A stretch of 57,563 nt of DNA from contig CAZSUC010000001.1 of the NCBI GenBank assembly GCA_964610055.1, positions 157,304 to 214,866 of the forward strand. The letters run 5' to 3'. Source of the stretch: an uncultured Candidatus Saccharibacteria bacterium (GTDB lineage: Bacteria; Patescibacteriota; Andersenbacteria; UBA10190). The position numbers and the translations under genes are program-made. The first letter of the stretch is position 1; each line of letters starts with the position of its first letter. Below are positions 24,074-43,954 of the stretch, piece by piece. The notes beneath the pieces are model-generated. The model was not told the DNA's origin. It worked only from the letters and a program-made list of their open reading frames with translations, and searched no databases.

Positions 24074-27000
24074 TTAGTTATTCGACAGATAATTCAAATT
24101 AATTTCACCTACTTGAACTGAATCGCTCTGGTCGGCTGTCATATGGACCTGAATGGTCACATATTCACCTGCCGTATATGTCCCGGTCGGTGTATCTGAT
24201 AATTGCGTCCAAGTACTAGCTGTTCCTGCTGCTTCTGCCGCAGTAATTCCCGCATCAGCTGCGTTGTTTGTGTCATAAAATGACACTTGAACGCTGCCAT
24301 TCGTCGCATCGGTACGTCGGCCGTAAACTTGTACTGGATTACTAGCTGCCCAACTGTCAAAATTATCCGGTACTCTCCATCTAATCCAAATGTCGTAGTC
24401 TTGGCTCGTTGATTCCGTAGTTGTCCAACTGTAATAGCTGTGCGTATCGCTCGTTCCGCAATATGACGTATTTACCGCCGGAATCCCGTTAGTTGCGTCA
24501 TTATCACAGAAATCACTTGTCATCGTTCCGCTATTGCTTGATCCGTCTCCTGATAAGGAAGCACCTTCATATTCCGGCGATAATGTCTCTTGTCGCGTTG
24601 GTCGAGCATTACCGCTGTAAGTCACTGCTTCTGTGAATTCAGACGCTGATTGGATGTATAAGCCGCGATCCCAGTTTGCTCCAATTACTAACGCGTATTC
24701 TGTCGCATCTGATCCAGCCGCCAATCCTGCGATATTAACCCCATATAACGTATCACCGCTGTCCCCGGAAGACGTCATTGCCAAGTTGATTCCCATATTT
24801 GTGTCTCCGCTAGCAGAATCACTGGCCGCGGTGTAGTTAATTTGCAAACCATCCGCTGAGCTCGTTGCGCCGTAACTCGCATTTGTAATTGTTACCATAT
24901 CGCTCGTTGGCGCTTCTATCGCCGCAATCGACAAATCCTCTCCTGCTCCTAATGACCAGTCGACATCATCATAAAATGTTGTTTTCCCATCCGCATCCAC
25001 TTTCACCACATCACTACCACCATCTTGGATCGCAAATTCTCCCGTCGAATCCAGGTTTATATCATAATCATAGGCGCCCAATACCATACTGGTTGAATTA
25101 TCCAAGTTCAAAGTATCTTCTAAATGGCTGAAATCCAGGCTATCTGCCATGACCGAGGCGCTCACCGTGTTAGTTGCCGCCACCGCCAAGTCAATCGTGC
25201 TTGTATCCGCAAATGTAATTGTTTCTCCGTCATCAATCGTTTGCGTCGTTGGCACCGTTTCATCGTCTGAAATAATGAAACTAGAGAATGCACTGCTACA
25301 ATCTGTCCATTCCATCTTTCCGGAAGTATCGCTCCATTTTAAGCAATATCCATCAACTGCCGACCCGCTAATATCCAAATCACTTTCATCGACTGCTTCA
25401 TCTGCGATTGTAACTGCTCCCGTTCCGTCCAATGAAACATCCCCGCTCATGGCTACTGGATTATAATTTGTCCCGTCCGCCACCAGGATATATCCCGCTG
25501 TATTGGTTGCCATGTATAAATCATCGCCTGAAATCGCTAAATCATCCGCAATCGTGGTTTTTGTGCCGGTATTATCAATCGTCAAATTACCGGAAGAATC
25601 AACCGTAAACCGTGAATCAACCGAATCATCCGTGTATGTAAGGCGCAGCTGCTCGGTCGTAGATAAAATTTCCAATTTCGCGTCAGGCGATGTATCGCCA
25701 ATACCTAAACTTCCGCTGCTTAAAATTGTCATCTTCGCCGCGTCTGACGGACCAATCATTAAACTATTATCTACTGCGTTAGTAATGCCGCGGCCAAATA
25801 TAAATGCACCTGTTGTTGCTGTTAATGTGTTACTAGCTCCAAATACACCATTATATGTGTGCTGAACCGCCCCACTAATAGTATTATCAGATCCAAATAT
25901 TGAGTTTCTACTAGAGTTTGTACTGCCAGAAAACGAATTATTATATCCAACAATAGAGTTTCGTTGTCCACTATTATTCACATTATCCGTATTATTAGTA
26001 CCAAAAATTGAATTCAAGTTACTAGCTGCAGAAGAACCAGTATTACCACTACCGACAGCTACCTGATTCAGCGTTAATGCTCCACCTGACGATAAGCTAG
26101 CTACTGTTGTGGTGCCATTAACAAAAGATAAGCCATTAGTTGATGCTAGAGATTTAATAAACCATGTATCTGCAGTATCATCACCGTCATCCGCATCAAG
26201 CACTAATACAGCATCGGTTCCTTCTGCTCCTTGTATCTCAAAAAGATCCTCTGGTGTCGCGGTTCCAACGCCTACCTTATTTTCATACCCACTTGCATTT
26301 ACCGCTAGCGTACTCGTGTCCACCACTAAACTGCCCAAAGTAGCCAATCCGGACGTTGTGAAATCTCCTGTTTGTCCCGAAGCTCCTAATAATGCCACAG
26401 TTCCACTCAAATTCGGCAGCGTGATTGTCTTGTCGCTTAAAGTTGCATCTGCCGCTACCAAAATTATCTCATAATCGTCTGCGGTCGCTCCTTCAAAATA
26501 CAGCGAATAATCACTCGTGTCGGCGGCCGTAAAACATGCCCCGCTCTCACATGTTCCTACTGTCTCAATATCAGCGCTCGCTAAATTAGAAATATCTGTC
26601 CAGGCCAATGTCCCGTCAGTTTGTGTGGTCAAAACATAGTCGTTGCCGCCAATCGGGCCGCTTGGCCATGTATAAGTCAGTGAATTAAACGTTGTTGTGC
26701 CTTCTACGGTTAAACCACCAGTCATACTTAAGCTGCCAGTCGTTCCATCGTCTGTTAATGTCAGTAACGTATTTGTCCCGTCATCAAAAACCAAAGTTGC
26801 TGAATCCAAGGTAATTGCATCTGCTAATTCCGTTCCGTCCACCACATCTGCAGCAATAGTTAAAGCCGTCGTGTTATTTGCTCCTAACGTCGCTGTCACA
26901 TCTCCCGTAAACGTATGTCCTGACACAATAATCGTTCCGTCTGCATCAGGTAATGTCCAAGTTCTGCCCGCTACCGCCGTTAAATCAGCAATTTGTAGTG

Positions 27001-30000
27001 TTCCGTCCCCAGTTGCATCGTTAAAGACTAAATAAGTGCCACTCGTGCCATTAAAGCACTCGCCTGTCGTGCAATCACCCACTGCTGCAATATCGCCTGC
27101 CATGCTTTCCCAAGTTAATGTCCCGCTTCCATCACTGGTTAGGACTTGCCCATCTGTGCCGTCATCCGTTGGCCACGTGTAAGTCCCTCCTCCAAACGTT
27201 GTTGTCCCGCCAACTGTTATATTCCCGCTCGCATCAATCACAAACGGCGTCGTATCCCCACTCTCATCATTCACCACCAACGAATTACCCGTCCCCGTAT
27301 TAGTAATTGAAAACACATTTGATCCTGTTACCGCTATATCTGTAGAAGCGTCTAAGGTTAAGGAATCAGCCAAATCGCTGAATCCTAACGAATCGGCCGC
27401 AATGTCTAATGTGACGGCTAATTCCTCTCCGCCCGTTCCGTTGGTAACTGTAATCTTTCCTGCTCCTGCATCTGCAATTGATCCTACATAGTCTCCTGTC
27501 GTGTCTGTACCCAAAGCCACTGTATTAGCGCCAATTGTTGTGACTCCAGCATTGCTAATTGTAATATCTCCACTCATCGCTACGCTTTCCCATGAATCTC
27601 CGTCCGCAATCAATACATTTGCATCAGTCGCTGTCGTTGTCCCTAACGTTGCTCCATTAATCTTGGCCACAGTTAGCGCCGTACTGCCGTCAGTATCTAA
27701 TGTACCGGTAGCATCGCCCGTAAATGTGTGTCCCGATAAAATCACCGTTCCGTCCGCATCTGGTAATGTCCAAGTACGATTACCCGACATGCTCGCCGAT
27801 ATAGCTAACTGTCCCGTGCCGCCATCGTCATAAAATGTTAGGTATGATCCGCCGTCTGAAGTCCCGTCAAAACAGTCTCCAGTGTCACAATTGCCAACTT
27901 TTGTCACATCTCCTGTACCGGCTCCAACACCTGTTACTGCTTGCCAGGTTAAATTCCCTGCTCCGTCCGTCACTAACACTTGTCCGCTTGATCCTCTTCC
28001 GTCCGGCCAAATATATCCGTATTGGTTAAAATACACTTTCCCGTTTGATCCCGAATCATCTTCAACTGCAAATAAGATATTCCCGCTCGGATCTTTAATT
28101 GATAGTTGAGAACCGTCCGCAATATTCAAATTTGGAGTCGTTCCTGAGAAATATAGCGTTGTCCCGTGAGTTACGTTGCCAGTTACATCAAAACAATCTC
28201 CGCTCGTACAATCTCCAACTGTATTAATGTCTCCGGCAATCCCCCCTCCTGTTATATTTGCCCAAGCCAAAGTGCCGTCTGTTTGAGCCGTTAACACGTA
28301 ATTATTACTTCCGATTGTCGTCGGCCAAGTGTAAGTTAAGCTGTTTAAGGTTGTGGTTTGACCAGTTGCAACCATTAAATCGCCGCCAACAGTCACGTCT
28401 CCAGCGCTATCAACCACAAATTCAGTTCCATTGGCATTTACTGTAAACGAATCCTCGCTGCCAGTATTCACCACGCTAATATCCGCTCCGGCTACTAACG
28501 ACGTGCCAGTTGTTGAATTGCCTACTGTCAGTGTATTGGTATCCGTTACTCCGATGGTTGTCGCCGCATCCAAAGCTAATGCGTCCTTTAACTCAGTGAA
28601 ATCAAGGCTATCAGCCGTAATATCAACCGTAATAGCTGCTCCCTCTGTTCCAGAATTATTCACTGTAATCCGGCTTGTACCGCTCACGGGTGTAATTGTT
28701 GCCACGTAATTACCTGTTGTATCAGTGCTCAGTGTTACCGAATTTGGCTGTATAGTCGTTAATCCAGCCTGCGTTAAGCTTATATCACCTGTTATTCCTC
28801 TCGTCTGCCAACTACTGCCATCACCAATCAAAATATTTCCCGCCGTTGCCGTAGCGCTGCCAATCGTAACATTCTTAATTTTATTCACTGTGACGTTGGA
28901 TAAGTACCCGGATACATCACCAGCCACACTTAAAGCGCCTTCCAAAGTACTTACTGTCGTTGAATTAACTGTTGTGACGTCATTTAAGGCACCTACGCTA
29001 ATACTTGTTAATCCGACCAGATCCGCATCCAAATTAAAGTGATTAGTGCCGTCTAGTGTAATATTTGTACCGCCATAATATGTTGGCGCTTCCGTTTCGC
29101 TTGAACATGCCCACACCGCATTTGTATCATCCCATCGTAATATCTGATCATCCGCGCATGTTCCTAACAGTTGTAATCCATTCGCTGTTAACGCCATTCC
29201 TGATGCTGTTTGCGTTTCTGTGTCGTTTACACCTGTTAATAATTGAATTGCTAAACTGCCTCCGCTCGTATCTAAGCCATTGCCTGTGTTGACTGCAATT
29301 GTCGGCGTGGCTCCTTCTCCGCTGCCGCCAGTTACCGTAATGCTGTCGTCTGCTGCGCTTAATGACGCCACGTAATTACCCGCCGTTTGCGTACCTAAAT
29401 CAATCGCATCGTTGGCAATTGTGATACTTGTTGAGCCTGTTGTTCCTAAAGTCGTGGTAGTTACTTCTCCGGTTAATTGTTGACCGCTCAAAATGATAGT
29501 TCCACTCGAATTAGGCAAAGTCCACGTTCGGTTAGACGACATTGATGATGAAATTTGAAGAGTACCCGTTCCGCCGTCATCATAAAACGTCAAAGCCGTG
29601 CCACCGTCCGAAGTCCCGTCAAAACAATCCCCGCCGGCACAATCTCCAACGCTACCCACGTCTCCAACTAATCCAGCTTCTGTTGCTGTCGACCAATTCA
29701 AAGTACCATCACCATTGCTAATTAATACTTGATTAGATGTTCCGTAAGTTGACGGCCATTCATACTCCACTGAATTTAAAGTCACGTGATTTGCTCCGCT
29801 TACATACTCTGCGCCAAATAAGATATGTCCGCTCGCGTCTTTAACATAAAAAGTAGAATTATCCGCTACTGTTAATGTTGTCCCTGATCCTGCTGCTGTG
29901 AAACAATCACCGGACGCGCAGTCTCCAACTGCTGAAATATCACCTAATCCCATTGAACCCGGATTACCCCATGTTAATCCACCTGCTCCATCAGTAGTTA

Positions 30001-33000
30001 AGAGATAATCTTCTCCTCCTGCATCGCCTGGCCAAGTGTATGTTTGGCCATTTAATGTTGTTGTGCTCCCAAAAGTTACACTTCCTGCCGCATCAATCAC
30101 AAACGGCGTCGTATCCCCACTCTCATCATTCACCACCAAAGAATTACCCGTCCCCGTATTAGTAATTGAAAACACATTTGATCCCGTTACCGCTATATCT
30201 GTAGAAGCGTCTAGGGTTAAAGCGTCTTTTAATTCACTAAAATCTAATCCGTCCGCCGTCACTGCCACTCCACTACTGCCCACAGTTAAGGTTGAATCAG
30301 CCGCTGTCACCGCTACCCCACTTGAAGTTACGCTAATACCATTACCGGCCTTAACCGATAATGTTGGCGTTGAGCCATGTGCTGGCGCGCTAATTGTATT
30401 TAAACCATTCCCGGCTGTAATACTAGCAACATAATTTCCACTCGTATCAACACTCAAAGATACCGATCCATCCGTAATGCTTGTTACTCCAGCAGACGAT
30501 AATTCCAAAACACCCGTTACTGGCACAGAGCTAAATCCAGTCCCGTCAGCTACCAAAATATTTCCGCTGTCGTTGCTGCTCATTTTAATCTGAGCCCCGA
30601 CTGTCACGTTCCCCGCTGCGTCAATTATAAAAGGTGTTGAATCACCTGATTCATCGTTCACTGTTAAGGAGCTTCCTGTTCCAGTATTAGTAATTGTTAG
30701 CGCGCTTCCTGATCCACTTTTTGCAATTGTCAGCGTATTGGCATCGGCGGCCGTTATTGTTGTTGGCGCGTCCAATGTTAATGCGTCCGCAATTTTAGAA
30801 AAATTCAAACTATCATCTGCTATCTGCAATGTCGTCCCAGATAGTTGTAATATCGATCCGTCCGGTGTACGCCATGCTGTCTGCTGAGTAGTGCCGTCCC
30901 AAGCCAATAATTGGGATGTCGAAGGGCTTGAAGGTACACCTGCTTCTAGAGAAAAAGTTACTGTATCAGTCGCTGATACAGCCGTCGCTAAACCAGTGCC
31001 TGCCACAAAAGTTAGTTCGTCATTACTGTCAATATCTTCACTCGTTGTTCCGTCTGTTATTGAAAAGCCTTGAAAGCCTGTCGCGTTACAGTCTTGCCAA
31101 GTAAATCCTCCAGTTGAGCTATTGTAAATTAAACAATAACCATTTGACGGAGAGTTAGAGGCTAATAGCATTGATTCTTCAATTGCATCTGCTTGAATTG
31201 TTAATGCTCCAGACGTACTAATAGTTGCATCTCCGCTTACTACGGCTGAATTCCATTGGCTTCCATTTCCAACTAATACCGCGCCACTACTAGCAGTTGT
31301 TGTACCTAACGTTGCGCCGTTTATTTTTGCTACACTAACTGACGTACTCCCGCTCGTTGATAAGGTGCCAGTTAAATCTCCAATTAAATTATGTCCTGAT
31401 AAAATAACTGTTCCGCTCGCATTTGGTAATACGATATTTCGATTTGCGTCTGCATCGGCTGAAGACAGATTAATTGTATAACTGCCTGCTGAAGGACCTT
31501 TAAAGTACAAACTATCCGAACCAGTTGCATCAACCGTAAAACAACTACCCGTATCGCATGTCCCAACATCGCGAATATCTCCCGTCACACCCGCTGCGCT
31601 TGGATTTATCCATGTTAATTGTCCTGAACCGTTAGTTGCTAATATGAAGTTATTGTCTCCGCTCGCTGCTGGCCAAGTATAGGTTAAATTATTTAATGTT
31701 GTTGTGCCTCCAACCGTTAAATCACCGTCTTCATCTATTTCAAATACCGATGTATTACTTGTTGGTGTCCCTTTCGCTATCCCGAACAAAGCCTGATTAG
31801 CGCTTGGTGTAGCCCCAACTAAAACTTCAAACATTGGAATATTAACATTTGAAGAAGATGTATTTTCTGTTTGAAAAACTAATCTGCTATTGCTATCTTT
31901 CCCGTATTCAATGCTCCAATCTGCATCGCTCCCTAAGTTTAAAGCCACATCATCAGCAATTGTCCATTCGCCTGTTATTGTTTCTGCGTCATCGTCAAAA
32001 ATAGCCGCTTCAATCGTATTTTCAGTGGTTGCATCTATTGTTGTGAGTCCATTTATAGCTGTAACGGAATTTAATTCGCTTGCAATCGAAAATTCAGTTC
32101 CGTCCAGTTCTAAGTCATCCCCGGCCGTATAGGCTGTATCGGTGCTACTAATAGTTAAAGTTCCGGTAGTCTTATTCAAAGATACCGTTGTAGCGCCTTC
32201 TGAGGCGACTGTCAGCACTTCATCGGCACTATTAGCAGTAAATGTATCTGTGCCAACTTTAATTGCTTGTAGGGCATTCTGAGGCGTTATATCTTGCCCC
32301 ATTGCTGTGTTGCTAATGGTTAATCCATTAATCTCAATTCCTTCACCTGCTTGAAATTGGATATCTCCAGTTTGTCCTTGTACGGAATTTACGACATTAG
32401 ACGCAAAAATTCGTCCATTACCCAGATTTATATCAATTCCTTCACCAGTAACATTGCCTTGTAACGTTAACTCGCCCTCCACTTGCATTTGATCATTGAT
32501 TAACGTTGGAACGTTAACTTCAAAAAATCTATCCAGTTCTTCTGTTGTTAAAGCCAAAACTCTAGGATTTTTATTATTCTCATCGCCATATGCCAAACGA
32601 GTTTCTTCTGTTGGAATCATCTCTTCCTCTAATCCAAACCACTCATTCAAATAAGATAATTTATTGCTAAATGAAGCACCGGATAGCTTCATTAAATGCA
32701 ATGAAGTCGTTACTAATATTCCAATCGCAAATAAAGACAGTACTGCTGGAGCTAATCGTAAGCGATGATGGGCAGTCGTTGCTGGTATTTGCCGATGATA
32801 TTTCTGATTTACTTCATTCTCATTAAAAGGTGAATAATATGTCTTAGTTTGATACTTACTTTGAGCAACCGTCTCATTAGCTAAAATAGGATCATTATTA
32901 CTGGTCTGTTTCTGCCAAGTTGCTAGATACGTCGGTGAGAACACTACTAAATCATCTTCAACTTTCGATAAAGATTTAATTTTTTGGTTAGACTCCTGCA

Positions 33001-33433
33001 ATGCTGTTTCTATAGGCAAAATTTCCTTTGAAATATTTTCCTCTTTGAGCGGTATTGCCTGTTCTGTTGTCTTCTCTGGATTTAAAAATGCCTCTAAAAC
33101 TGTCTGCGTATAAAGTCTTTCTCCATTATCATCTCTTAACGGAGATATTTTTCCTTGCGTTTCATATCTACGCAAAGTACTAGTTGAGATATTTAACTGT
33201 TTTGCCGCCTCAGAAATAGTAAGAGGGCGGTTATTTTTGTACCTTTCTAATTCAATTACGGAAAATAATCTGTGTCCGCCATCTGATCGTTGAGCTGTAA
33301 TTATCCCCTTTTTCTCCCATCTTCTTACAGTATCCACAGATACACCTAAAATTTCGGCAGCGCGCCGAATTGAGACAAAATCGCCCTTTAATGGTGTTTC
33401 TTGGGGCATGAAGGAAGGATTAATCCTAGGCAT
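24074..33433 (-). CDS. Giant (3119 aa) protein: two N-terminal MerR/excisionase-type HTH domains, one TM helix, ~2870-aa repetitive ectodomain
   Basis: aa ~19-66: VSIRRAAEILGVSVDTVRRWEKKGIITAQRSDGGHRLF. aa ~71-116: LTISEAAKQLNISTSTLRRYETQGKISPLRDDNGERLYT. TM LAPAVLSLFAIGILVTTSLHLM at aa ~226-247. Then come repeated modules (..TYTWP....G..L.....G.L.W, VG[DT]C..G.CF, TLP..[SD]GT[IV]). The ORF is uninterrupted over 9.4 kb. Confidence 0.9.
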   Translation of the reverse strand: MPRINPSFMPQETPLKGDFVSIRRAAEILGVSVDTVRRWEKKGIITAQRSDGGHRLFSVIELERYKNNRPLTISEAAKQLNISTSTLRRYETQGKISPLRDDNGERLYTQTVLEAFLNPEKTTEQAIPLKEENISKEILPIETALQESNQKIKSLSKVEDDLVVFSPTYLATWQKQTSNNDPILANETVAQSKYQTKTYYSPFNENEVNQKYHRQIPATTAHHRLRLAPAVLSLFAIGILVTTSLHLMKLSGASFSNKLSYLNEWFGLEEEMIPTEETRLAYGDENNKNPRVLALTTEELDRFFEVNVPTLINDQMQVEGELTLQGNVTGEGIDINLGNGRIFASNVVNSVQGQTGDIQFQAGEGIEINGLTISNTAMGQDITPQNALQAIKVGTDTFTANSADEVLTVASEGATTVSLNKTTGTLTISSTDTAYTAGDDLELDGTEFSIASELNSVTAINGLTTIDATTENTIEAAIFDDDAETITGEWTIADDVALNLGSDADWSIEYGKDSNSRLVFQTENTSSSNVNIPMFEVLVGATPSANQALFGIAKGTPTSNTSVFEIDEDGDLTVGGTTTLNNLTYTWPAASGDNNFILATNGSGQLTWINPSAAGVTGDIRDVGTCDTGSCFTVDATGSDSLYFKGPSAGSYTINLSSADADANRNIVLPNASGTVILSGHNLIGDLTGTLSTSGSTSVSVAKINGATLGTTTASSGAVLVGNGSQWNSAVVSGDATISTSGALTIQADAIEESMLLASNSPSNGYCLIYNSSTGGFTWQDCNATGFQGFSITDGTTSEDIDSNDELTFVAGTGLATAVSATDTVTFSLEAGVPSSPSTSQLLAWDGTTQQTAWRTPDGSILQLSGTTLQIADDSLNFSKIADALTLDAPTTITAADANTLTIAKSGSGSALTITNTGTGSSLTVNDESGDSTPFIIDAAGNVTVGAQIKMSSNDSGNILVADGTGFSSVPVTGVLELSSAGVTSITDGSVSLSVDTSGNYVASITAGNGLNTISAPAHGSTPTLSVKAGNGISVTSSGVAVTAADSTLTVGSSGVAVTADGLDFSELKDALTLDASTDIAVTGSNVFSITNTGTGNSLVVNDESGDTTPFVIDAAGSVTFGSTTTLNGQTYTWPGDAGGEDYLLTTDGAGGLTWGNPGSMGLGDISAVGDCASGDCFTAAGSGTTLTVADNSTFYVKDASGHILFGAEYVSGANHVTLNSVEYEWPSTYGTSNQVLISNGDGTLNWSTATEAGLVGDVGSVGDCAGGDCFDGTSDGGTALTFYDDGGTGTLQISSSMSSNRTWTLPNSSGTIILSGQQLTGEVTTTTLGTTGSTSITIANDAIDLGTQTAGNYVASLSAADDSITVTGGSGEGATPTIAVNTGNGLDTSGGSLAIQLLTGVNDTETQTASGMALTANGLQLLGTCADDQILRWDDTNAVWACSSETEAPTYYGGTNITLDGTNHFNLDADLVGLTSISVGALNDVTTVNSTTVSTLEGALSVAGDVSGYLSNVTVNKIKNVTIGSATATAGNILIGDGSSWQTRGITGDISLTQAGLTTIQPNSVTLSTDTTGNYVATITPVSGTSRITVNNSGTEGAAITVDITADSLDFTELKDALALDAATTIGVTDTNTLTVGNSTTGTSLVAGADISVVNTGSEDSFTVNANGTEFVVDSAGDVTVGGDLMVATGQTTTLNSLTYTWPTTIGSNNYVLTAQTDGTLAWANITGGGIAGDINTVGDCTSGDCFDVTGNVTHGTTLYFSGTTPNLNIADGSQLSIKDPSGNILFAVEDDSGSNGKVYFNQYGYIWPDGRGSSGQVLVTDGAGNLTWQAVTGVGAGTGDVTKVGNCDTGDCFDGTSDGGSYLTFYDDGGTGQLAISASMSGNRTWTLPDADGTVILSGHTFTGDATGTLDTDGSTALTVAKINGATLGTTTATDANVLIADGDSWESVAMSGDITISNAGVTTIGANTVALGTDTTGDYVGSIADAGAGKITVTNGTGGEELAVTLDIAADSLGFSDLADSLTLDASTDIAVTGSNVFSITNTGTGNSLVVNDESGDTTPFVIDASGNITVGGTTTFGGGTYTWPTDDGTDGQVLTSDGSGTLTWESMAGDIAAVGDCTTGECFNGTSGTYLVFNDATGDGTLQIADLTAVAGRTWTLPDADGTIIVSGHTFTGDVTATLGANNTTALTIAADVVDGTELADAITLDSATLVFDDGTNTLLTLTDDGTTGSLSMTGGLTVEGTTTFNSLTYTWPSGPIGGNDYVLTTQTDGTLAWTDISNLASADIETVGTCESGACFTAADTSDYSLYFEGATADDYEIILVAADATLSDKTITLPNLSGTVALLGASGQTGDFTTSGLATLGSLVVDTSTLAVNASGYENKVGVGTATPEDLFEIQGAEGTDAVLVLDADDGDDTADTWFIKSLASTNGLSFVNGTTTVASLSSGGALTLNQVAVGSGNTGSSAASNLNSIFGTNNTDNVNNSGQRNSIVGYNNSFSGSTNSSRNSIFGSDNTISGAVQHTYNGVFGASNTLTATTGAFIFGRGITNAVDNSLMIGPSDAAKMTILSSGSLGIGDTSPDAKLEILSTTEQLRLTYTDDSVDSRFTVDSSGNLTIDNTGTKTTIADDLAISGDDLYMATNTAGYILVADGTNYNPVAMSGDVSLDGTGAVTIADEAVDESDLDISGSAVDGYCLKWSDTSGKMEWTDCSSAFSSFIISDDETVPTTQTIDDGETITFADTSTIDLAVAATNTVSASVMADSLDFSHLEDTLNLDNSTSMVLGAYDYDINLDSTGEFAIQDGGSDVVKVDADGKTTFYDDVDWSLGAGEDLSIAAIEAPTSDMVTITNASYGATSSADGLQINYTAASDSASGDTNMGINLAMTSSGDSGDTLYGVNIAGLAAGSDATEYALVIGANWDRGLYIQSASEFTEAVTYSGNARPTRQETLSPEYEGASLSGDGSSNSGTMTSDFCDNDATNGIPAVNTSYCGTSDTHSYYSWTTTESTSQDYDIWIRWRVPDNFDSWAASNPVQVYGRRTDATNGSVQVSFYDTNNAADAGITAAEAAGTASTWTQLSDTPTGTYTAGEYVTIQVHMTADQSDSVQVGEINLNYLSNN
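27230..27361 (-). repeat. Copy A of a 132-nt near-identical (129/132) dispersed intragenic repeat
   Basis: Aligns to 30089-30220 at a fixed offset of 2859 nt, with mismatches only at 27281, 27326 and 27355. Encodes LTLDASTDIAVTGSNVFSITNTGTGNSLVVNDESGDTTPFVIDA. Confidence 0.85.
30089..30220 (-). repeat. Copy B of the 132-nt near-identical intragenic repeat
   Basis: See copy A. The surrounding repeat units are much more diverged at the DNA level. Confidence 0.85.
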
Positions 33434-34010
33434 TGGTTGCTTAAAAATATAAGCAAACCTATGTCATGCATAATTATATCATATCTAAATCCCTAAATTA
33501 ATAACTCAATCATAACAACTAATCCTGGTATTTAATCCAACTTTTGTTGGTAATAAATATTAATTTTTAAGTAGTTATATTTGTTTATATCTCTCATTCT
33601 TCGCGGTTTTAATAGGCAATTAACATTGTCCGCACTTTAATTTAATTATCGCTTAATCTCTTCTTGGTTATTCTTGTTCCTCCTTAAGACAGATAAAAAA
33701 ACAGTCATGGTTACATAAGCTGGTATAGCTATAATTTAATCGTCATCAGCTTGATCTCTGTAATGTATAATTATGTTTCTATTTGATTTCGCCCAAGCCT
33801 GTTTTTTACTAACGACTAGACCGAACCAAAACTAGGCATTAGTTATCACTCTTTCTAAAATATATGCAAATGCATACCAAATAAGCTATGCATAAATTGT
33901 CAGATGCCAAAATATCTTGCGGACACAAAAATTACTCACTGGTTTTACTGCTAATAAATAATATTATTGGCGCATTATCTTTTATATCCAGGAAAGATTA
34001 TAATATACAC

Positions 34011-34811
34011 ATGAAATCCTTCGTGCGGATCTTTGGTGTTTATTTCACTCTCGCAGTTGTTTTAGGGCTTGCACCGTGGTTGGTAAAAGCTCAAGTTTTA
34101 CGCGGGTTACCCGGTTTAGCTGAATACGTTAACCTTGAAGAAAGTGACGTTCAAAACGGCTATTTAGTCGCTCTAAATGAGGGCAAGTATCAACTCGCTT
34201 CCGAAGAATACTCTCCCTATCTTTATGGCGTTGTTGCGCTTAATCCTGCTGTCGCTGTTAGTCAAATCGGTCATCAAAATGCTTATCCGGTCGTTACGTC
34301 TGGGTCATCAGAAGTCATAGTTTCAGCTGCTAACGGCACTATTGCTCCTGGTGATTACATTACTAGCTCTACTACGCCTGGCGTTGGAATGAAAGCCAGT
34401 GAAGCCGGATTCGTTATTGGGATCGCCCAAGCTGAATATACTAACACTAATGAGCCAGGACTAATTACAGTTGTTATTGATTCAAAGTTTATTAGTTCAT
34501 TAAGCAATGAACAGCTCTCAGCTCGAGCCTTTGCTGCTCAATTTCAAAATGCCTTCTCTATTGGTATGCGCGCCGCTGCTAGCGAACCTAATACCGCTTT
34601 ACGATATGGGGCCGCCGCTTTAGTTCTTATTATTTCAATTACAGTTGGTTTTCTAGTTTTTGGCCGAGCTGCTACTAACGGCATTGTTGCCGTCGGCCGC
34701 AATCCTCTGGCGCGCAAATCAATCTTCTTAGCCATTGCTTTTAATATTGGTATTACTGTTGTTTTTGCTGCTGTTGGTCTCATACTGGCTCTCATTATTC
34801 TCGCGCTGTAA
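34011..34811 (+). CDS. Signal-peptide protein with an extracytoplasmic beta-rich domain and a C-terminal two-helix hairpin resembling an F-ATPase c subunit (RNP loop, no acidic residue)
   Basis: The start was chosen at MKSFVRIFGVYFTLAVVLGLAPWLVKAQ (signal-peptide-like); the track ORF begins at 33888. The C-terminus is ..AALVLIISITVGFLVFGRAATNGIVAVGRNPLARKSIFLAIAFNIGITVVFAAVGLILALIILAL. It is the first gene of the atp cluster, 9 nt upstream of the next gene. Confidence 0.6.
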   Translation: MKSFVRIFGVYFTLAVVLGLAPWLVKAQVLRGLPGLAEYVNLEESDVQNGYLVALNEGKYQLASEEYSPYLYGVVALNPAVAVSQIGHQNAYPVVTSGSSEVIVSAANGTIAPGDYITSSTTPGVGMKASEAGFVIGIAQAEYTNTNEPGLITVVIDSKFISSLSNEQLSARAFAAQFQNAFSIGMRAAASEPNTALRYGAAALVLIISITVGFLVFGRAATNGIVAVGRNPLARKSIFLAIAFNIGITVVFAAVGLILALIILAL

Positions 34812-35561: not shown

Positions 35562-36019
35562 CTGACCAAATCCTCCCCTTTCGGGTTATTCTGGCTGCTG
35601 ATGCCACTTTTTTTTCCGTTCGCTTAGATCAAGCCTATAACGCTCTCTTCTCTTTAAAAAAAGATTGGCGCCCGGTAATTGCTGATTTATTCTCTGTTAG
35701 TGAATATCAGCATATTTTTCGTAATTTAAATATTACTGATAAAACTTCTCCTTCCGAAGTCGTAGACGTTATTCAAAACATGCAGTCGGCCCTAGCAGCT
35801 TTGCCGGTCATTGATCTAAAACTCGCTTTTTTGCCCTCTCGATCATTCTCTGAGCAATTAGTAGATTGGTTTGATCAGTATGGTCCTGGGCCCGGACGTT
35901 TAAATTTAATTTTTGATCCTACCCTAATTGGCGGTCTGTCAGTTGGTTATCTTGGACGCTTATACGACTATTCCCTATCCAAACATCTTTCTTATGATGG
36001 ATTATCAACAATATCGTAA
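35549..36019 (+). CDS. atpH: F-type ATPase subunit delta (OSCP-like), short and divergent
   Basis: The C-terminal signature ..LIFDPTLIGGLSVGYLGRLYDYSLSKHL matches the V.DP.LIGG..V..G....D.S....L motif of delta/OSCP. The gene sits directly before alpha. Confidence 0.7.
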   Translation: MGAVADQILPFRVILAADATFFSVRLDQAYNALFSLKKDWRPVIADLFSVSEYQHIFRNLNITDKTSPSEVVDVIQNMQSALAALPVIDLKLAFLPSRSFSEQLVDWFDQYGPGPGRLNLIFDPTLIGGLSVGYLGRLYDYSLSKHLSYDGLSTIS

Positions 36020-37472
36020 AGAATCAAGCGAATACGGAGTTTTAGCAGAGCTTAAGCATCCGCTCGCTTTTGTTCGCGGATTACCAGAGGTCGCGGTTGG
36101 AGAAGTCGTGGTGTTTGAAAATGGTATTACTGGGCAGGTAACCGCTTTGCAAGCTGAATTTGTGGAAGTGCTGGTGTTGTCCAGCGGTCGTCTCGTGCCC
36201 GGAACAGAAGTCGTTCGCACTAATACTCAGCTTTCTGTTAAAGTTGGCCAATATCTTCAGGGTGCAGCCATTAATCCCCTCGGACAATCCTTATTTCCTG
36301 ATAATCCTGTTGTGGTATCCGACGATGCCACTGACCGTGTAACTGATATCAATCCTCCTCATATTAGCCATCGTACCGCTATTAAAACACCATTTTTAAC
36401 CGGTACTAGTGTTACCGACCTACTTTTACCTCTCGGACGTGGTCAACGTCAAGCCGTTCTTGGTGATCCTACAACTGGAAAAAATTCATTCTTATTAACT
36501 ACAGTTAAAGCTCACGCCACTCACGGCAAGGTTGTTTACGCTATGATTGGCAAGCCGTGGAATGATATTCGCAAAGTATATAATTTCATTGCCGAATCGC
36601 CTAATAAAGACAACATCACGTTAGTTGCAACAAGCGCGGAAGATATTATTAGCCTTATTTGCCAAACTCCGTTTACTGCTATGACTATTGCGGAATATTG
36701 GCGCGATCAAGGCGAAGATGTTGTCATTATTTTCGACGATTTATCCACGCACGCGCGTTTTTATCGAGAAGTTGGCTTATTAGCACGTCATTTCCCGGCT
36801 CGTGAGTCTTACCCTGGTGATATTTTCCATTTGCATGCTCGTCTTCTGGAGCGCGGCGGTAATTTTATTCATCCTGACAAAGGCGAATCCTCCATTACTT
36901 GCTTGCCTGTTGGCGAGACTGTGCGCGGAGAATTAACTGGTTACATTGTTTCTAACTTAATTGGTATTACAGACGGCCATCTTCTGTTTGATGAAACTAT
37001 TTTTAGCCAAGGACGTCGCCCTGCTATCGATGTTTCTTTATCTGTTACTCGTGTTGGTGGACACACTCAAAGTCCTTTAATTCGTGCTTTGCACCGCAAA
37101 TTAGTGGTTTTAATGAATAAACATGAAGAAGCTCAAGGATACACCCATTTTGGAGCTGAATTACCGGAAGCCATGCAACGCATTCTTGATGCTGGTGATT
37201 GTTTGTTAGAGTTCCTTTCACAACCGCTCTTCTTTACTGTTCCCTACTCTGTGCAAGTGGTTTTCTCTGCCATGATTTGGATGGGCTGGATGAATCAGCA
37301 TAAAACTGAAATCCCCGCTTGGCGAAATAACCTATCTGCTGCCTATAATCAAGATGGAAATAAACAAATACTAGATGCTCTGCTAGAGCCTAAATCATTA
37401 GATGAATTTGTCCAAAAACTTGCCGCGAGTCGCGAGCACCTTCTGGGGCTATGCCAGGCGTCCAAGACATAA
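35994..37472 (+). CDS. atpA: F-type ATPase subunit alpha (Walker A variant GDPTTGKN)
   Basis: LLPLGRGQRQAVLGDPTTGKNS, IFDDLSTHARFYREV.LL..R.P.RE.YPGDIFHLHARLLER, ITDGHL.F, SLSVTRVGG. The start was placed at the MM codons 35994/35997; the track ORF starts at 35928, inside atpH. Confidence 0.9.
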   Translation: MMDYQQYRKESSEYGVLAELKHPLAFVRGLPEVAVGEVVVFENGITGQVTALQAEFVEVLVLSSGRLVPGTEVVRTNTQLSVKVGQYLQGAAINPLGQSLFPDNPVVVSDDATDRVTDINPPHISHRTAIKTPFLTGTSVTDLLLPLGRGQRQAVLGDPTTGKNSFLLTTVKAHATHGKVVYAMIGKPWNDIRKVYNFIAESPNKDNITLVATSAEDIISLICQTPFTAMTIAEYWRDQGEDVVIIFDDLSTHARFYREVGLLARHFPARESYPGDIFHLHARLLERGGNFIHPDKGESSITCLPVGETVRGELTGYIVSNLIGITDGHLLFDETIFSQGRRPAIDVSLSVTRVGGHTQSPLIRALHRKLVVLMNKHEEAQGYTHFGAELPEAMQRILDAGDCLLEFLSQPLFFTVPYSVQVVFSAMIWMGWMNQHKTEIPAWRNNLSAAYNQDGNKQILDALLEPKSLDEFVQKLAASREHLLGLCQASKT

Positions 37473-38317
37473 GCAATGAGATTGTTTTTGTTAAGAACCT
37501 TCAGCGGCTAGTTTCGGCCTATGAAGAAATTGCTGTTATGCGCATCGAAAAAGTGCGTCAAAATGTTATTGCCGCCCGTTTTTTTCGCGAAGGTTTGTCT
37601 AACGTTTTTTCTGAAATTCAACTCTCCCACCAACGTGACATAGCTGTTCAGCTAGAAAAAAAGAAAAAACATCTTATCCCTCGGCAAGCCGTCGTACTTA
37701 TATCCACTAACACTCGTTTAGCTGGTTCTATCACCGCTCGAGTTACTCAAAGTTTTATTAAATATGTGAATAGTAATGATGCCGATGCCGTCGTTTTAGG
37801 GCAAATTGGTAAAGAATATTTAGCTCAAGCTGGATTTAAGCGCGAAATTGCCTTTTTCCCTCTCTTAAAAGATCAGCCTGATATGGCCGATCTCAAGCCT
37901 TTAGTTGATCATATCCTCAAGTATCAAGCTGTTACTGTGTTCTTTGGTCACTTTGAAAATCTCGTGACTCAAAAACCAGCGCAAGTAGAGTTAGGTAGCC
38001 GTCAAATATTAGACGAACTTTCTAAAATTACTTCCAAATCACCTAAAAACATTGATACTTACCTTTTTGAGCCGTCTTTAGACGAAATTATTCGGTTTTT
38101 TAATGATCAGATCTTCGGCACGCTGGTCAAAATGACCATGAGCGAGTCGTGGTTGTCTTTGCTTGGGTCTCGTATTACTGCTATGGAGCAAGCCTCTGGT
38201 AATGTTGTTAAGCGTATTCATGTTCTTGAACAGGAACATCGTCAAGCTGCTCGTCGTTTGCAAAATACTAAGCAGCGCGACCGTCTCAGTGGCATTACTT
38301 TATGGCATAATACATAG
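37451..38317 (+). CDS. atpG: F-type ATPase subunit gamma
   Basis: The N-terminal ..I..V.N.Q.....E.IA..R..K helix and the C-terminal RITAMEQASGN..K....L....RQAARRLQNTKQ pattern resemble gamma. 288 aa, between alpha and beta. Confidence 0.85.
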   Translation: MPGVQDISNEIVFVKNLQRLVSAYEEIAVMRIEKVRQNVIAARFFREGLSNVFSEIQLSHQRDIAVQLEKKKKHLIPRQAVVLISTNTRLAGSITARVTQSFIKYVNSNDADAVVLGQIGKEYLAQAGFKREIAFFPLLKDQPDMADLKPLVDHILKYQAVTVFFGHFENLVTQKPAQVELGSRQILDELSKITSKSPKNIDTYLFEPSLDEIIRFFNDQIFGTLVKMTMSESWLSLLGSRITAMEQASGNVVKRIHVLEQEHRQAARRLQNTKQRDRLSGITLWHNT

Positions 38318-38318
38318 T

Positions 38319-39770
38319 ATGGAAATCACCGGATACATCACTTCTGTTCAGGGGCAGGTTGCTCGAGTTAAATTTGAAAATCGGCGTCCTACTCGTCATG
38401 ACATTCTCATTACTCAAAATGACCACCCATCTCTTTTAGAGGTCATTGCTTCTGACACTCCGGAAACATTCTATTGTTTTATCTTAAATCCCGAACATAA
38501 TCTAGCCCGTGGCGTCGTTGTTAAAAGCCAAGGAGAGTCTCTCATGATTCCTGTTGGGCCAGGTGTTTTAGGTCGCGCCTTTGATATTTTTGGCTCCCCG
38601 CACGATGAATTAGGCGAAATTAAAAGCGATCAGCATCGTCCCCTCTTCGCCCCTCGACAACAAAATTTGAATAATATTCAAACTCCCGAAGAAGTCGTTG
38701 AGACCGGTATCAAAGCCTTAGATTTTTTTACGCCAATATTTCGTGGTGGCAAAACTGCTTTTGTCGGCGGCGCTGGTGTGGGTAAAACCGTTATTCTAAC
38801 CGCTATCATCAATCGTCTCGTTGTAGAAGCAAAATCAGATCAGAAAACTGTCGCGGTTTATAGTGCTGTTGGTGAGCGTTCCCGTGAGGCTCAAGAATTA
38901 CATTCTGATCTAAAAGAGGCCAATGCTTTGCCATATACCAGCCTTATCCTGGGTCAAATGGGCGAAAATCCTGCTTTGCGTTTTCGTACCGCTTATGCTG
39001 GTGCGACCATTGCTGAGTATTTTCGGGATGACATGTCCACCAATGTTCTCTTTTTCATGGATAATGTTTATCGCTTTGCTCAAGCTGGCCATGAATTAGC
39101 CACTATTATGGGACAAATCCCATCCGAAGATGGTTATCAACCAACTTTGTCCTCGGAAATGGCTGAGCTTAATGAGCGTCTCGTTTCTACAAAAAATGCT
39201 AGTATCACCTCCTTTTTAGCCGTTTTCGTTCCGTCCGATGATCTAACTGATTATGGAGTACGCTCTGTCTTCCCTTATATCGATAGTATTATTATCTTGT
39301 CTCGTGAAATTTTTCAGTCCGGTCGCTTACCTGCTATTGACCTTTTACGATCTACCTCTGCCGCGCTTAATCCTCTGACCATTGGCGAAAAACACTACTC
39401 AACCTATATTCGCGCTAAACAGATTATGGAAAAAGCCACTGATTTAAAGCGTATAGTATCGTTGGTCGGTGAAAGCGAACTTTCTCAGGAAAACCAGTTA
39501 GTTTATCGGCGTTCTCAGTTGATTACAAACTTTATGACACAAGATTTGTTCGTTGGCTCAACTATTTCTGAATCAGTCCGAGAGTTTATTGGACGTGAAG
39601 AAACCGTCGATGCTATCAGTGATATTATTGACGGTAAATATGACGAATTACAGCCCGATCAGTTACTTTATATCGGTAGTATCAAGAACTTAGGTAAACA
39701 AAATAAAGATCTCAAAGAAAAAGCTATTCAGCAACAAGCTGACCAAGAATCAGTCCGCACTTCTTCGTAA
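38319..39770 (+). CDS. atpD: F-type ATPase subunit beta (catalytic; intact Walker A/B)
   Basis: GGKTAFVGGAGVGKTV, VGERSREAQEL, LFFMDNVYRFAQAGHE, GYQPTL, VPSDDLTDY, GRLPAIDLL.STS. The DELSEED region is degenerate (GESELSQENQ). The start MEITGYITSVQG is at 38319, one nt after the atpG stop. Confidence 0.95.
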   Translation: MEITGYITSVQGQVARVKFENRRPTRHDILITQNDHPSLLEVIASDTPETFYCFILNPEHNLARGVVVKSQGESLMIPVGPGVLGRAFDIFGSPHDELGEIKSDQHRPLFAPRQQNLNNIQTPEEVVETGIKALDFFTPIFRGGKTAFVGGAGVGKTVILTAIINRLVVEAKSDQKTVAVYSAVGERSREAQELHSDLKEANALPYTSLILGQMGENPALRFRTAYAGATIAEYFRDDMSTNVLFFMDNVYRFAQAGHELATIMGQIPSEDGYQPTLSSEMAELNERLVSTKNASITSFLAVFVPSDDLTDYGVRSVFPYIDSIIILSREIFQSGRLPAIDLLRSTSAALNPLTIGEKHYSTYIRAKQIMEKATDLKRIVSLVGESELSQENQLVYRRSQLITNFMTQDLFVGSTISESVREFIGREETVDAISDIIDGKYDELQPDQLLYIGSIKNLGKQNKDLKEKAIQQQADQESVRTSS

Positions 39771-40031
39771 TTAAGTAACTAGGCCGACAAAAACATTGAC
39801 CTTATTGTTCCGGCACATCAAGACGCCACGATCAAGTTTAACTTCTTTAACGTGTCGCTTATCTGGTCGGATCATCAAATTATCCTTGATGAGAGAAATA
39901 AAATTAGCGTGTTCCGGTAATATATCGAACTTGCCCGCGTCGTTAACCGCACTCAAAGCTACCGCTCTCCCCTCAAACAATACACCTTCCGGAGCTACTA
40001 CCGACACATCCATTTGGGGATAATCGGCCAT
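39771..40031 (-). CDS. atpC: F-type ATPase subunit epsilon, N-terminal beta-sandwich domain only (86 aa)
   Basis: MDVSVVAPEGVLFEGRAVALSAVNDAGKFDILPEHANFISLIK...I......KEVKLDRGVLMCRNNKVNVFV aligns by eye along the whole E. coli epsilon N-terminal domain (LDVVSAE..MFSG.V..I.V.G.EGELGI.PGHAPLLTAIKPG.I.I...........L.GG.LEVQP..VTVLA). Confidence 0.8.
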   Translation of the reverse strand: MADYPQMDVSVVAPEGVLFEGRAVALSAVNDAGKFDILPEHANFISLIKDNLMIRPDKRHVKEVKLDRGVLMCRNNKVNVFVGLVT

Positions 40032-40048
40032 TCAAGATTATTATTCAA

Positions 40049-40639
40049 TTACGGAGCCACTGGTACCGTATCTTCAGAACCAGGTACTGGAGTTTCGTCT
40101 AACATCATTGGTGGTACTTCTTCCCCACCCATATCTTGTGGTACTACTGGCGTTGGAGTCACTTCAGCATCGCTAGTCGTAATTCTAACTGGCACAACAT
40201 CAAGAATCATATCGCGGTCAGAATCATATAAAATTGCTCTCTTTTCCGTGATAATCAAATGATCACCGTTTTTTGCCGGCTTATAAAATTCATTTGAAGC
40301 CTTTAATTTTTCTACATCCGTAATCGTTGCCACTGTCGGAGCTGGGTCAGTTGGAATATCCAAATGACGTCGTACTTTTGCCAAAATCTCTTCTGCCAAA
40401 GCCGATCCAGCTTGCTCCGAATTCTGTTTAGCAGCCTGTAACTCATTCGCAGTTTGCTCTAATTGCTGTTGCACTGTTCGGCGATCTTTTTCTGCCTTAA
40501 CGAACATAACGACAACTGCAATAATTGCAATTAAAAGCACGATATTTAGAAAACGTGCCATTCCGCCTCCGCGTTTGCGCGGCATACGAGTTTCTTTTGG
40601 TGTAATAGTAGATGGTTTTTCATTCATACTCACCATCAT
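40049..40639 (-). CDS. Hypothetical membrane-anchored protein (N-in single TM, coiled coil, C-terminal P/T/V-rich tail)
   Basis: RKRGGGMARFLNIVLLIAIIAVVVMFV anchor. No recognisable catalytic motif. Packed between tig and atpC. Confidence 0.6.
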   Translation of the reverse strand: MMVSMNEKPSTITPKETRMPRKRGGGMARFLNIVLLIAIIAVVVMFVKAEKDRRTVQQQLEQTANELQAAKQNSEQAGSALAEEILAKVRRHLDIPTDPAPTVATITDVEKLKASNEFYKPAKNGDHLIITEKRAILYDSDRDMILDVVPVRITTSDAEVTPTPVVPQDMGGEEVPPMMLDETPVPGSEDTVPVAP

Positions 40640-41956: not shown

Positions 41957-43954
41957 TTACAGCAATGGCGCAATAATCAAAGCCACGATACTCATTAACT
42001 TAATCAAGATATTTAACGCTGGGCCCGCTGTATCCTTAAATGGATCACCAACTGTATCGCCAATTACGGCTGCTTTATGCACATCTGATCCTTTTCCACC
42101 TAAATTACCGGCTTCCACATATTTCTTTGCGTTATCCCAAGAACCTCCGGCGTTGGCCATCATAACCGCTAATAAGAATCCCGTTACAATACCGCCAGCT
42201 AATAATCCACCTAACGCTTCCGCTCCTAAGGTAAATCCAACTACTACTGGCACTAAAATCGCCAAAATACCAGGTAATACCATTTCATGTAACGCTGCTG
42301 TGGTAGCAATATCCACACTTTTCCCATAATCAGGCTTGTTTTGTCTCTCCATAATCCCCGGGATTTCTCTAAATTGACGTCGTACTTCTTCTACCATTTT
42401 CATAGCTGATTTTCCGACCGCTTCCATCGCAAAAGCCGAAAAGATAAATGGCAAAGTGCCACCTAAGAATAATCCCACCATAATTTTAGGCTGCATGACG
42501 TCAATCATCGAAATATGAGCCATTTCCTTGAAGCTCACCAATAACGCTAATGACGTTAATGCTGCTGATCCAATCGCAAAACCTTTACCAATTGCAGCCG
42601 TTGTATTTCCCACTGCGTCTAACGATTCCGCTCTTTGACGAGTTTCACTTCCCATACCAGCCATTTCAGCAATTCCCGCCGCATTATCAGCCACAGGGCC
42701 ATATGTATCTGAAGCCAATGTAATTCCTAAAGTTGATAACATTCCCACTGCTGCAATCGCAATTCCATACATGCCATCCAGCCAAAATGACAGCAAAATT
42801 GCCGCCACTACCACTAATATCGGTACTGCTGTCGACATCATTCCTAACGCCAACCCACTAATAATATTTGTTGCTGGGCCAGTTTGAGCTGCTTCTGCTA
42901 CTTTTCGAGTCGGGGTTTTTTCGTGACTCGTGTAATATTCCGTCACTAATCCAATTGCCACCCCCGCCACTAATCCCGTCACTACTGCCCAAAACTTCGA
43001 CCAATCATTTGCAAATAGGTGATTAGTCCACCACCAGCTACCTAAAATCATCACTACTCCCGCTAAAATAGTTCCTTTATTGAAACTACTGCTAATTTTA
43101 TGCTCGTCATTCGTTCTGACAACCGAAATACCAACTAAACTTGCAACTACCCCAATTGCTGCTAAACCAAGCGGATAAATCGCTCCTGCATCCGCAAATG
43201 TTTTCAAAGCTACCGATGAAATACCAAGTACCATTGCGGCGATCAAAGTATCCACATAACTTTCAAACAAATCTGCTCCCATACCAGCCACATCGCCTAC
43301 GTTATCACCAACATTATCGGCAATTACAGCTGGATTACGAGGATCATCTTCTGGAATTCCTTTTTCTACCTTACCCACTAAATCGGCACCTACATCCGCT
43401 GCTTTGGTGTAAATTCCACCACCGACTCGTGCAAATAAAGCTACTGCCGATGCTCCAAAACCAAATCCATACACTAAACTTGGGTTTCCCGTCCAAATCC
43501 AAAGCAAAGTTACGCCTAATAATCCTAGACCTACTACTGACATTCCCATAACCGCTCCTGAGCTAAAAGCAACTGATAATCCTTGTGCTACACCCTTTTT
43601 CGCTGCTTCCGCCGTACGAACGTTCGCTAATGTCGCAATTCTCATACCAATATTTCCGGCCACCACTGATAACACTGCTCCAATTAAGAACGAAATAATC
43701 GTTTCGTTGGCCACTGTCTGCTCTGGCGTGCCCCAGAAACGAGTTAACCATAACAATGCCGCTGCTACCGCGACCACAATCACTAACACCCGATATTCTC
43801 GGTTTAAGAAGGCCATCGCGCCTTCTCTGATTGCATTTGCAATGCCCTTAGCCTCTTGGTTTTCTACCTTGCGGCTTGTTATTGACTTAGCTTGCCAGGC
43901 GGCATAGCCCAAAGCTAATACCCCCGCGGCTAGAATCCATGTTTCGTACTGCAT
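41957..43954 (-). CDS. hppA: Membrane-integral pyrophosphatase (K+-dependent-type signature)
   Basis: [56 protein letters not shown]; about 16 hydrophobic helices; 665 aa. Confidence 0.95.

Follow-up and report, generated by a model that had tools for sequence, protein, structure and literature searches.

Results

The fusion gene and its protein

The 57,563-nucleotide stretch of DNA analysed here (the window), which comes from a patescibacterial genome assembly of the Andersenbacteria lineage, carries at the head of an atp gene cluster a gene that we call X, whose product combines an extracytoplasmic domain with a membrane hairpin resembling subunit c of F-type ATP synthases (Table 1). The longest open reading frame (ORF) around X runs from 33888 to 34811 on the plus strand, with the likely start at an internal ATG on which homologues agree. 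Four parts can be distinguished in the product: a signal peptide, a β-rich region of ~165 aa, a linker helix and a C-terminal two-helix hairpin. The N-terminus, MKSFVRIFGVYFTLAVVLGLAPWLVKA/Q, is that of a typical signal peptide, with a hydropathy segment at aa 2-27, and the homologues carry signal peptides with A-x-A-type ends. An earlier reading of this DNA, made from the letters and their translations (the sequence-only reading), had proposed an extracytoplasmic domain of ~190 aa fused ahead of the hairpin; the fusion holds, but the domain measures ~165 aa after the signal peptide. Directly after the linker helix stands Pro193, which is invariant in the family alignment. The AlphaFold2 (AF2) model of X has a mean predicted local distance difference test score (pLDDT) of 90.

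The last 73 residues of X (34590-34808), NTALRYGAAALVLIISITVGFLVFGRAATNGIVAVGRNPLARKSIFLAIAFNIGITVVFAAVGLILALIILAL, form two long hydrophobic helices joined by the loop G-R-N-P-L-A-R-K, as the AF2 helices and the hydropathy profile agree, and the R-N-P codons cgc aat cct occupy 34698-34706. Counting 20 positions on from the loop Arg leads to a Val, and the 73 residues are free of Asp and Glu throughout. The GxGxGxG motif is absent from helix 1, which has instead a conserved stripe of small residues that includes an S-x-x-x-G pair. The predicted topology, with the domain outside and the basic loop inside, is that of subunit c. After X and a gap of 10 bp follow genes for a 246-aa coiled-coil protein that is b-like, a delta (OSCP)-like protein, alpha, gamma and beta, with epsilon convergent on the minus strand. 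The loop with its codons, the Val, the absence of Asp, Glu and GxGxGxG, the topology and the position of X at the head of the cluster had been noted in the sequence-only reading and are confirmed here.

Similarity of the hairpin to subunit c

The likeness to subunit c had been proposed by eye, and four partly overlapping tests now back it. The NCBIfam subunit-C model PRK07159 matched aa 179-264 of X with an E-value of 1.5e-5, at 25 bits against a cut-off of 122. Searching all Protein Data Bank (PDB) sequences with a profile built from 28 family hairpins returned 12 matches, all 12 of which were F-type c subunits aligned over both helices (best E 5.9e-5). Alignment by hhalign to five canonical c subunits gave an E-value of 1.7e-5 and a probability of 78%, and placed GRNP over ARQP and Val250 under E. 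coli Asp61. Foldseek superposed the AF2 model on many solved c subunits with TM-scores of 0.75-0.89, normalised to the c chain, and root-mean-square deviations (rmsd) of 1.1-1.8 Å.

Similarity to subunit c is thus present at the profile level and specific, and no other family claims the hairpin. Pfam ATP-synt_C (PF00137) did not match X or the hairpin alone, where only noise such as CydS and ABC2 appeared, and in two relatives with immunoglobulin-like (Ig) domains its matches were weak, at 20.8 and 17.1 bits against a cut-off of 24. Because the curated Pfam and NCBIfam thresholds are not reached, we regard the hairpin, on its sequence and predicted fold, as a remote homologue of F-type subunit c that lies outside curated family membership, rather than as an annotated member; the sequence-only reading of the hairpin as a c-subunit relative is supported to that extent. 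Two other identities that had been put forward for checking were rejected. With Pfam at E-values up to 10, the hairpin matched no type IV secretion system (T4SS) pilin, AtpI or AtpZ family (PF18895, PF04956, PF03899, PF09527), and hhalign to the window's own TrbC/VirB2 pilin gave a probability of 0.2%. That pilin, another secreted helical-hairpin protein, is encoded at the end of the window at 56941-57561 on the plus strand, with a Pfam E-value of about 1e-8.

Subunit c (AtpE, PF00137) and the X hairpin have in common two long helices, a short basic cytoplasmic R-(Q/N)-P loop, termini on the outside, and a gene placed among those for b, delta, alpha, gamma and beta in an atp operon. In E. coli the corresponding loop, Arg41-Gln42-Pro43, contacts gamma and epsilon. 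X differs in having neither the helix-2 carboxylate nor the GxGxGxG of helix 1, in the absence of an adjoining subunit a gene, and in bearing a signal peptide, the outer domain of ~165 aa and the linker helix in front. Proteolipid hairpins that carry no carboxylate do occur inside mixed rings, in Acetobacterium woodii c1 and in duplicated V/A-type c subunits, where they fit in the rotor ring just as the X hairpin might. In those rings, however, active hairpins outnumber the inactive ones and a subunit a accompanies them, whereas here every copy would be inactive. PDB entry 4bem, which belongs to this comparison with mixed rings, was among those matched by the hairpin profile.

Extent of the family and loss of the ion-binding residue

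By a word-indexed search we obtained 53 relatives, 235-317 aa long and almost all without a name; IMG calls two of them 'subunit c/K'. An exhaustive profile search that covered 1.84 billion representative proteins returned 24,551 proteins below an E-value of 0.001, of which 11,380 fell below 1e-10; at E<1e-30 there were 1,476 clusters, and nearly all of the top 150 matches have the length and architecture of X. In an alignment of 41 homologues gathered independently of the motif, every member has G-R-N-P and, nine residues further on, an Ile (41/41), and none of the 41 has Asp or Glu at or near the canonical ion site. We also scanned one genome per GTDB species with a degenerate DNA pattern for A-x-G-R-N-P-L-A-[RK]-x-x-I and obtained at least 120 stretches; about 113 of the 120 listed encode an X protein. 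Since the pattern itself fixes some loop positions in the scanned set, loop invariance rests on the 41-member alignment.

The larger sample served for the membrane core of helix 2. Among 120 full hairpins, drawn from the pattern-scan matches listed and from the loci collected earlier, not one Asp or Glu stands between +17 and +29 after the loop Gly (13 positions), and the canonical ion-site position is occupied by I, V, L, A or F only. Asn is common in these hairpins at +16, and polar Thr or Ser occurs at +20. Loss of the carboxylate is family-wide and not peculiar to the gene in the window. The G-R-N-P loop is the most conserved part of X, and both helices retain a stripe of small residues fit for tight packing.

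By record titles the carriers include Daviesbacteria, Woesebacteria, Curtissbacteria, Amesbacteria, Levybacteria, Pacebacteria, Wirthbacteria, Campbellbacteria, Parcubacteria and Saccharimonadales, and the closest relatives are from Andersenbacteria. The operon also occurs in many metagenome-assembled genomes (MAGs) titled 'uncultured Gammaproteobacteria bacterium' (loci L018, L023, L027, L029, L030 and others), labels that are probably wrong.

The outer domain and its exchange

The outer domain carries the conserved motifs G-D-Y-I-T-S-S and G-x-G-M-K-A, and its predicted fold resembles phage β domains. Foldseek against the PDB retrieved phage capsid-decoration and cement proteins, the base of the phi29 head fibre and phi29 gp12 (best E 1.4e-5), and against a viral library it retrieved pre-neck-appendage and tail-fibre proteins (best E 1.2e-11, rmsd 2.1-2.6 Å). 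The Pfam Peptidase_G2 IMC domain (PF11962) matched the outer domain of X weakly and that of a relative above the cut-off. The likeness to these phage domains (phi29 gp12 and gp8.5; the decoration proteins of Pam3, TW1 and BB1; Peptidase_G2 IMC) is one of fold; in X, by contrast, the domain is fused to a membrane hairpin within a cellular ATPase operon.

The same carboxylate-less hairpin also occurs behind unrelated domains. It follows an NHL β-propeller in two Wirthbacteria MAGs and one other MAG (L019, L052, L126) and Big_1 Ig-like domains in two MAGs (L038, L091), the latter being the relatives with a weak Pfam ATP-synt_C match, and all of these variants lie upstream of alpha, gamma and beta. 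The outer domain is therefore interchangeable between lineages: since the NHL and Big_1 variants share the hairpin, the hairpin with its cytoplasmic loop is the constant part and a binding-type surface domain is the variable one. The outer β domain is found apart from the hairpin as well, in proteins of 550-570 aa encoded near X (L030 1-1716, L033 2658-4328, L070 358-2019) and four times in a 1543-aa protein, P0107, which marks it as a surface module that these bacteria reuse.

Operon order and the search for subunit a and an ordinary subunit c

Linkage of X to atp genes was seen in all relatives examined, and X adjoins F1 genes wherever the sequenced piece reaches them. Of 92 loci that hold both X and alpha (the window and 91 relatives among the matches listed), 89 have X on the strand of alpha and upstream of it, two have X after epsilon and one has it on the opposite strand. 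The window, L001, L003, L004 and L006-L009 share one gene order, from X through the b-like gene, delta, alpha and gamma to beta, with epsilon either at the end or convergent on the opposite strand; L002 and L005 end inside the cluster. The b-like protein has an N-terminal transmembrane (TM) helix in most lineages and none in the window or L001. In the window a 196-aa protein with one TM helix and a coiled coil is encoded just upstream of epsilon, and a homologous 188-aa gene adjoins epsilon in L001, making this protein a candidate membrane anchor of the peripheral stalk in the window lineage.

A hidden Markov model of subunit c, run over all six-frame ORFs of the loci, matched X only. For subunit a, a phmmer search of the locus ORFs with the E. 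coli protein gave no match, the query being an insensitive one. Pfam found no ATP-synt_A in ten selected multi-TM ORFs, nine of them from related loci, among which ComEC, prepilin peptidase, holin, FtsX and TrbC pilin were recognised. In the 57.5 kb of the window subunit a was not found, most large ORFs having been searched through Pfam and four large multi-TM ORFs only with the E. coli protein. Nor does the operon conserve any multi-TM protein that has a buried Arg.

State of the F1 subunits and comparison with other ATPases

Alpha, beta and gamma are clearly F1-type, and all three score below their equivalog cut-offs (alpha 319 vs 484 bits, beta 404 vs 463, gamma 84 vs 194). In operons among the matches listed, the beta P-loop GG[AS]GVGKT was recovered in 40 of 53 and GERxRE in all 53; in the P-loop misses a simple scan had first caught an upstream G-x-P-x-D-G-K motif. 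The Arg-finger motif was matched in 70 of 88 alpha sequences, some of which are cut by locus ends. Epsilon is short across operons (85-115 aa), and from this shortness we read it as probably having no C-terminal inhibitory helices. Judged by its motifs, this F1 looks like an enzyme that turns over ATP. The alpha P-loop in the window has Asn where Thr or Ser is usual, other members having GDRKTGKT, which suggests an altered non-catalytic nucleotide site.

Neither of two known groups of divergent F-type systems accommodates the cluster. Membership in the N-ATPases was rejected: their gene order (atpDCQRBEFAG) differs, and the alt_F1F0 models lie far out of reach (alpha 293 vs a cut-off of 750 bits, beta 377 vs 752). 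N-ATPase operons are likewise divergent F-type operons found beside or instead of a canonical one, but they encode subunit a, a carboxylate-bearing c, AtpQ and AtpR. Membership in the mycoplasma Type 2 or Type 3 clusters was also rejected, as the MSC_0618/0619 and MMOB1660/1670 models scored alpha and beta at 198-363 bits against cut-offs of 520-850 and the window cluster holds genes resembling those of b, delta and c. The mycoplasma F1-like X0 ATPases, of which Type 2 is a gliding motor and Type 3 is needed for MIB-MIP antibody cleavage (PMC3369863, PMC12994834, PMC11864180), are nonetheless the closest functional parallel: they are F1-derived, occur in small-genome, host-attached bacteria, have a membrane part that is no proton channel, and are thought to power events at the cell surface. 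They differ in that no c, b or delta homologues are recognised in them, in their unrelated membrane parts (for example a 12-TM protein), and in coexisting with a canonical operon.

Table 1. Coordinates of X, its parts and the neighbouring cluster genes, numbered from the first letter of the window.
Feature	Position	Strand	Remarks
c-like fusion gene X	34011..34811	+	266 aa plus stop; start ATG at 34011 backed by homologues
Signal peptide, aa 1-28	34011..34094	+	basic n-region, hydrophobic core, V-K-A/Q cleavage-type site; presumed cleavage
Extracytoplasmic all-β domain, aa 29-165	34095..34505	+	Foldseek; weak Pfam Peptidase_G2 IMC match
Linker helix, aa 171-191, outer domain to hairpin	34521..34583	+	AF2 secondary structure, alignment
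c-subunit-like hairpin, aa 193-266	34587..34808	+	helix 1 aa 193-230, helix 2 aa 232-265 (AF2)
Cytoplasmic loop G-R-N-P-L-A-R-K	34695..34718	+	aligns with the A-R-Q/N-P loop, or G-R-N-P, of c subunits
Val250	34758..34760	+	aligned to the carboxylate that binds the ion in c subunits (Asp61 in E. coli, or Glu); alignments
b-like coiled-coil protein, 246 aa	34821..35561	+	atpF position; no TM helix in the window lineage
delta (OSCP)-like, 156 aa	35549..36019	+	weak OSCP match; stronger at the same position in relatives
F1 alpha-like	35994..37472	+	P-loop GDPTTGKN; Arg finger S-V-T-R-V-G retained
F1 gamma-like	37451..38317	+	
F1 beta-like catalytic subunit	38319..39770	+	GGAGVGKT, GERSRE intact
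epsilon, 86 aa, β-sandwich domain only	39771..40031	-	convergent to the cluster; same in L001, L004
196-aa protein, one N-terminal TM helix then coiled coil	40049..40639	-	just upstream of epsilon, same strand

Genomic neighbourhood

In the window lineage epsilon is co-oriented with the one-TM coiled-coil protein, trigger factor and a membrane pyrophosphatase-like gene (41957-43954, by eye), and in other lineages it follows beta on the same strand. Eight loci (L018, L034, L048, L061, L064, L098, L104, L121) have a gene of 560-590 aa between X and the b-like gene, with a longer gap from X to alpha; by eye its product is a cofactor-independent phosphoglycerate mutase (DGWGIAP, LIASGESVGLP). Two giant ORFs lie on the minus strand of the window, at 24074-33433 (3119 aa) and 8518-18057 (3179 aa). 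The product of the former begins with two MerR-type helix-turn-helix (HTH) motifs, followed by a hydrophobic segment and long Thr/Ser/Gly-rich repeats, and a homologous MerR-HTH giant gene stands upstream of X, in divergent orientation, in the Andersenbacteria loci L001 and L002 as well. A link between X and type IV pili was set aside: the full pilus cluster upstream of X in L003 is not conserved, and upstream of X in the window are a two-component system and a giant surface protein. The window does encode a type IV pilin-like protein of 339 aa with a prepilin N-terminal methylation motif, at 897-1916 on the minus strand. A promoter and terminator scan gave nothing beyond shuffled controls.

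Discussion

The architecture of X and of its operon suggests how a rotor-type hairpin might persist when its ion-binding residue is gone. Because the cytoplasmic loop is the most conserved part of the protein and the small-residue stripes of both helices suit packing, the X hairpins may assemble into a c-ring-like membrane ring in which the G-R-N-P-L-A loop would dock the gamma/epsilon foot of the F1 encoded downstream. With no carboxylate in the ring and no subunit a in the operon, such a complex would not be coupled to ions in any known manner; it would hydrolyse ATP only, neither making ATP canonically from an ion gradient nor pumping ions. Powered by hydrolysis, gamma/epsilon and the ring would rotate relative to alpha3beta3, which the delta/b stalk would hold in place, and the ring would display, and probably rotate, a crown of binding-type domains at the cell surface. 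Ring formation, docking, rotation and work outside the cell are steps that we infer. We lean, without great confidence, toward X as a ring-forming c homologue that docks a divergent, catalytically intact F1, is uncoupled from ions and displays surface domains. The more specific proposal of a rotary ATPase that spins an adhesin-like crown and delivers torque outside the cell for host attachment or action, in many Patescibacteria, is one that we put forward tentatively and hold to be rather doubtful.

Several considerations weigh against an ion-uncoupled ring of X hairpins. X does not reach the curated subunit-c thresholds of Pfam or NCBIfam, and ring formation is itself something that we infer from sequence. 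The TM helix of the b-like protein has no subunit a partner in the operon, and the b-like protein of the window has no TM helix at all. The scores of alpha, beta and gamma below their cut-offs could indicate an extra, specialised paralogous system instead of the sole F-ATPase of the cell. The search for subunit a reached about 8-20 kb around each of ~120 related genes, and F0 and F1 genes sit in separate operons in some bacteria. Other genomes of the candidate phyla radiation (CPR) do encode canonical a and c (PMC10633639 supplement; PMC9296517): Southlakia has a canonical operon of AtpZ, a, c, b, delta, alpha and so on, with one F1 set listed (PMC10633639 supplement), and rhodopsin-bearing Saccharibacteria have complete clusters with H+-type c subunits (PMC9296517). 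Canonical and X-type forms both exist in the CPR radiation.

X might belong to a second, specialised F1-like system beside canonical a and c, and perhaps a whole canonical operon, encoded elsewhere in the genome, which would make it part of an extra ATPase like the Type 2 and Type 3 clusters of mycoplasmas; or it might be an accessory or minority subunit in a canonical ring. In keeping with this possibility, alpha, beta and gamma match the mycoplasma and alternate-F1F0 models about as well as atpA, atpD and atpG, all below cut-off; canonical operons are known in some CPR; and mycoplasmas whose genomes are of similar size can have as many as three clusters (PMC3369863). Unlike the mycoplasma clusters, however, the X operon keeps delta and b in canonical order with X exactly at the atpB-atpE position, the single F1 set in the canonical operon of Southlakia hints that the two forms are alternatives, and an ordinary c or a was found in none of the neighbourhoods searched. 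We consider this possibility unlikely. We favour replacement over coexistence in view of the b and delta genes kept, the canonical order and the one F1 set of Southlakia; with replacement, the genome would presumably have no canonical atpB or atpE elsewhere. The hairpin might also be a mere two-helix anchor for a surface protein, with convergent likeness to subunit c and a mechanically meaningless F1 adjacency. Hydrophobic hairpins readily yield weak profile matches, Pfam ATP-synt_C misses the window protein, and VirB2-type pilins are similar in fold (supplement of PMC10633639). Such an anchor is nevertheless improbable given that the match singles out c subunits and keeps register across both helices and the R-N-P loop, that the hairpin bears no likeness to the window's own VirB2/TrbC pilin, that conservation is strongest in the cytoplasmic loop, and that the hairpin and its F1 neighbourhood recur with three unrelated outer domains.

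Two further explanations concern ion coupling itself. The complex could still be ion-coupled through a non-canonical ring site, made of the common Asn 15 residues after the loop Arg and of Ser/Thr, together with an unrecognised substitute for subunit a; the Asn at +16, the polar residue at +20 and the presence in the operon of b-like and small proteins without a family leave some room for this. It is quite improbable in our view, as that Asn aligns near the cytoplasmic end of the helix and not in mid-membrane, the operon conserves no multi-TM protein with a buried Arg, and, to our knowledge, every characterised F/V/A rotor ion site uses a carboxylate. Alternatively, the operon might be a functionless relic, drifting after ion coupling was lost in fermentative symbionts, which would agree with the divergence of the F1 subunits and with the dispensability of the ATP synthase in one cultivated Saccharibacterium species (PMC10633639). 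Against decay, no gene is disrupted, homologues of only 24-30% identity still share the catalytic motifs and the loop, and the family has thousands of distinct members, and we find this explanation most improbable.

An uncoupled, surface-displaying F1 ring bears on a standing puzzle. An F-type ATP synthase is present in nearly all Patescibacteria despite their having no respiratory chain, which has been called surprising (PMC11665869, PMC8080830), and a 2024 perspective still treats its presence as an unexplained surprise (PMC11665869). The literature that we searched holds no description of the X protein or of an a-less operon in CPR. Since it shows no subunit a and the ion-binding acid of c is lost, the operon in many CPR (Patescibacteria) probably encodes no ordinary proton-driven ATP synthase; a large share of Patescibacteria operons appears to encode a ring without an ion site and with no subunit a nearby. 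If this is true, reverse proton pumping and use of a host-made gradient would both fail as explanations for such operons, metabolic reconstructions in which alpha and beta suffice to score 'complex V present' would mislead, and much of the annotated 'ATP synthase' in the radiation would be no ATP synthase. The X operon would then represent a natural F1 motor joined to a ring that, by the sequence evidence, cannot be ion-coupled, with a bearing on the evolution of rotary ATPases and on how cells that have no outer energy source do work at their surface. Should the rotor indeed deliver torque outside the cell, it would be used in attachment to, or action on, a host cell.

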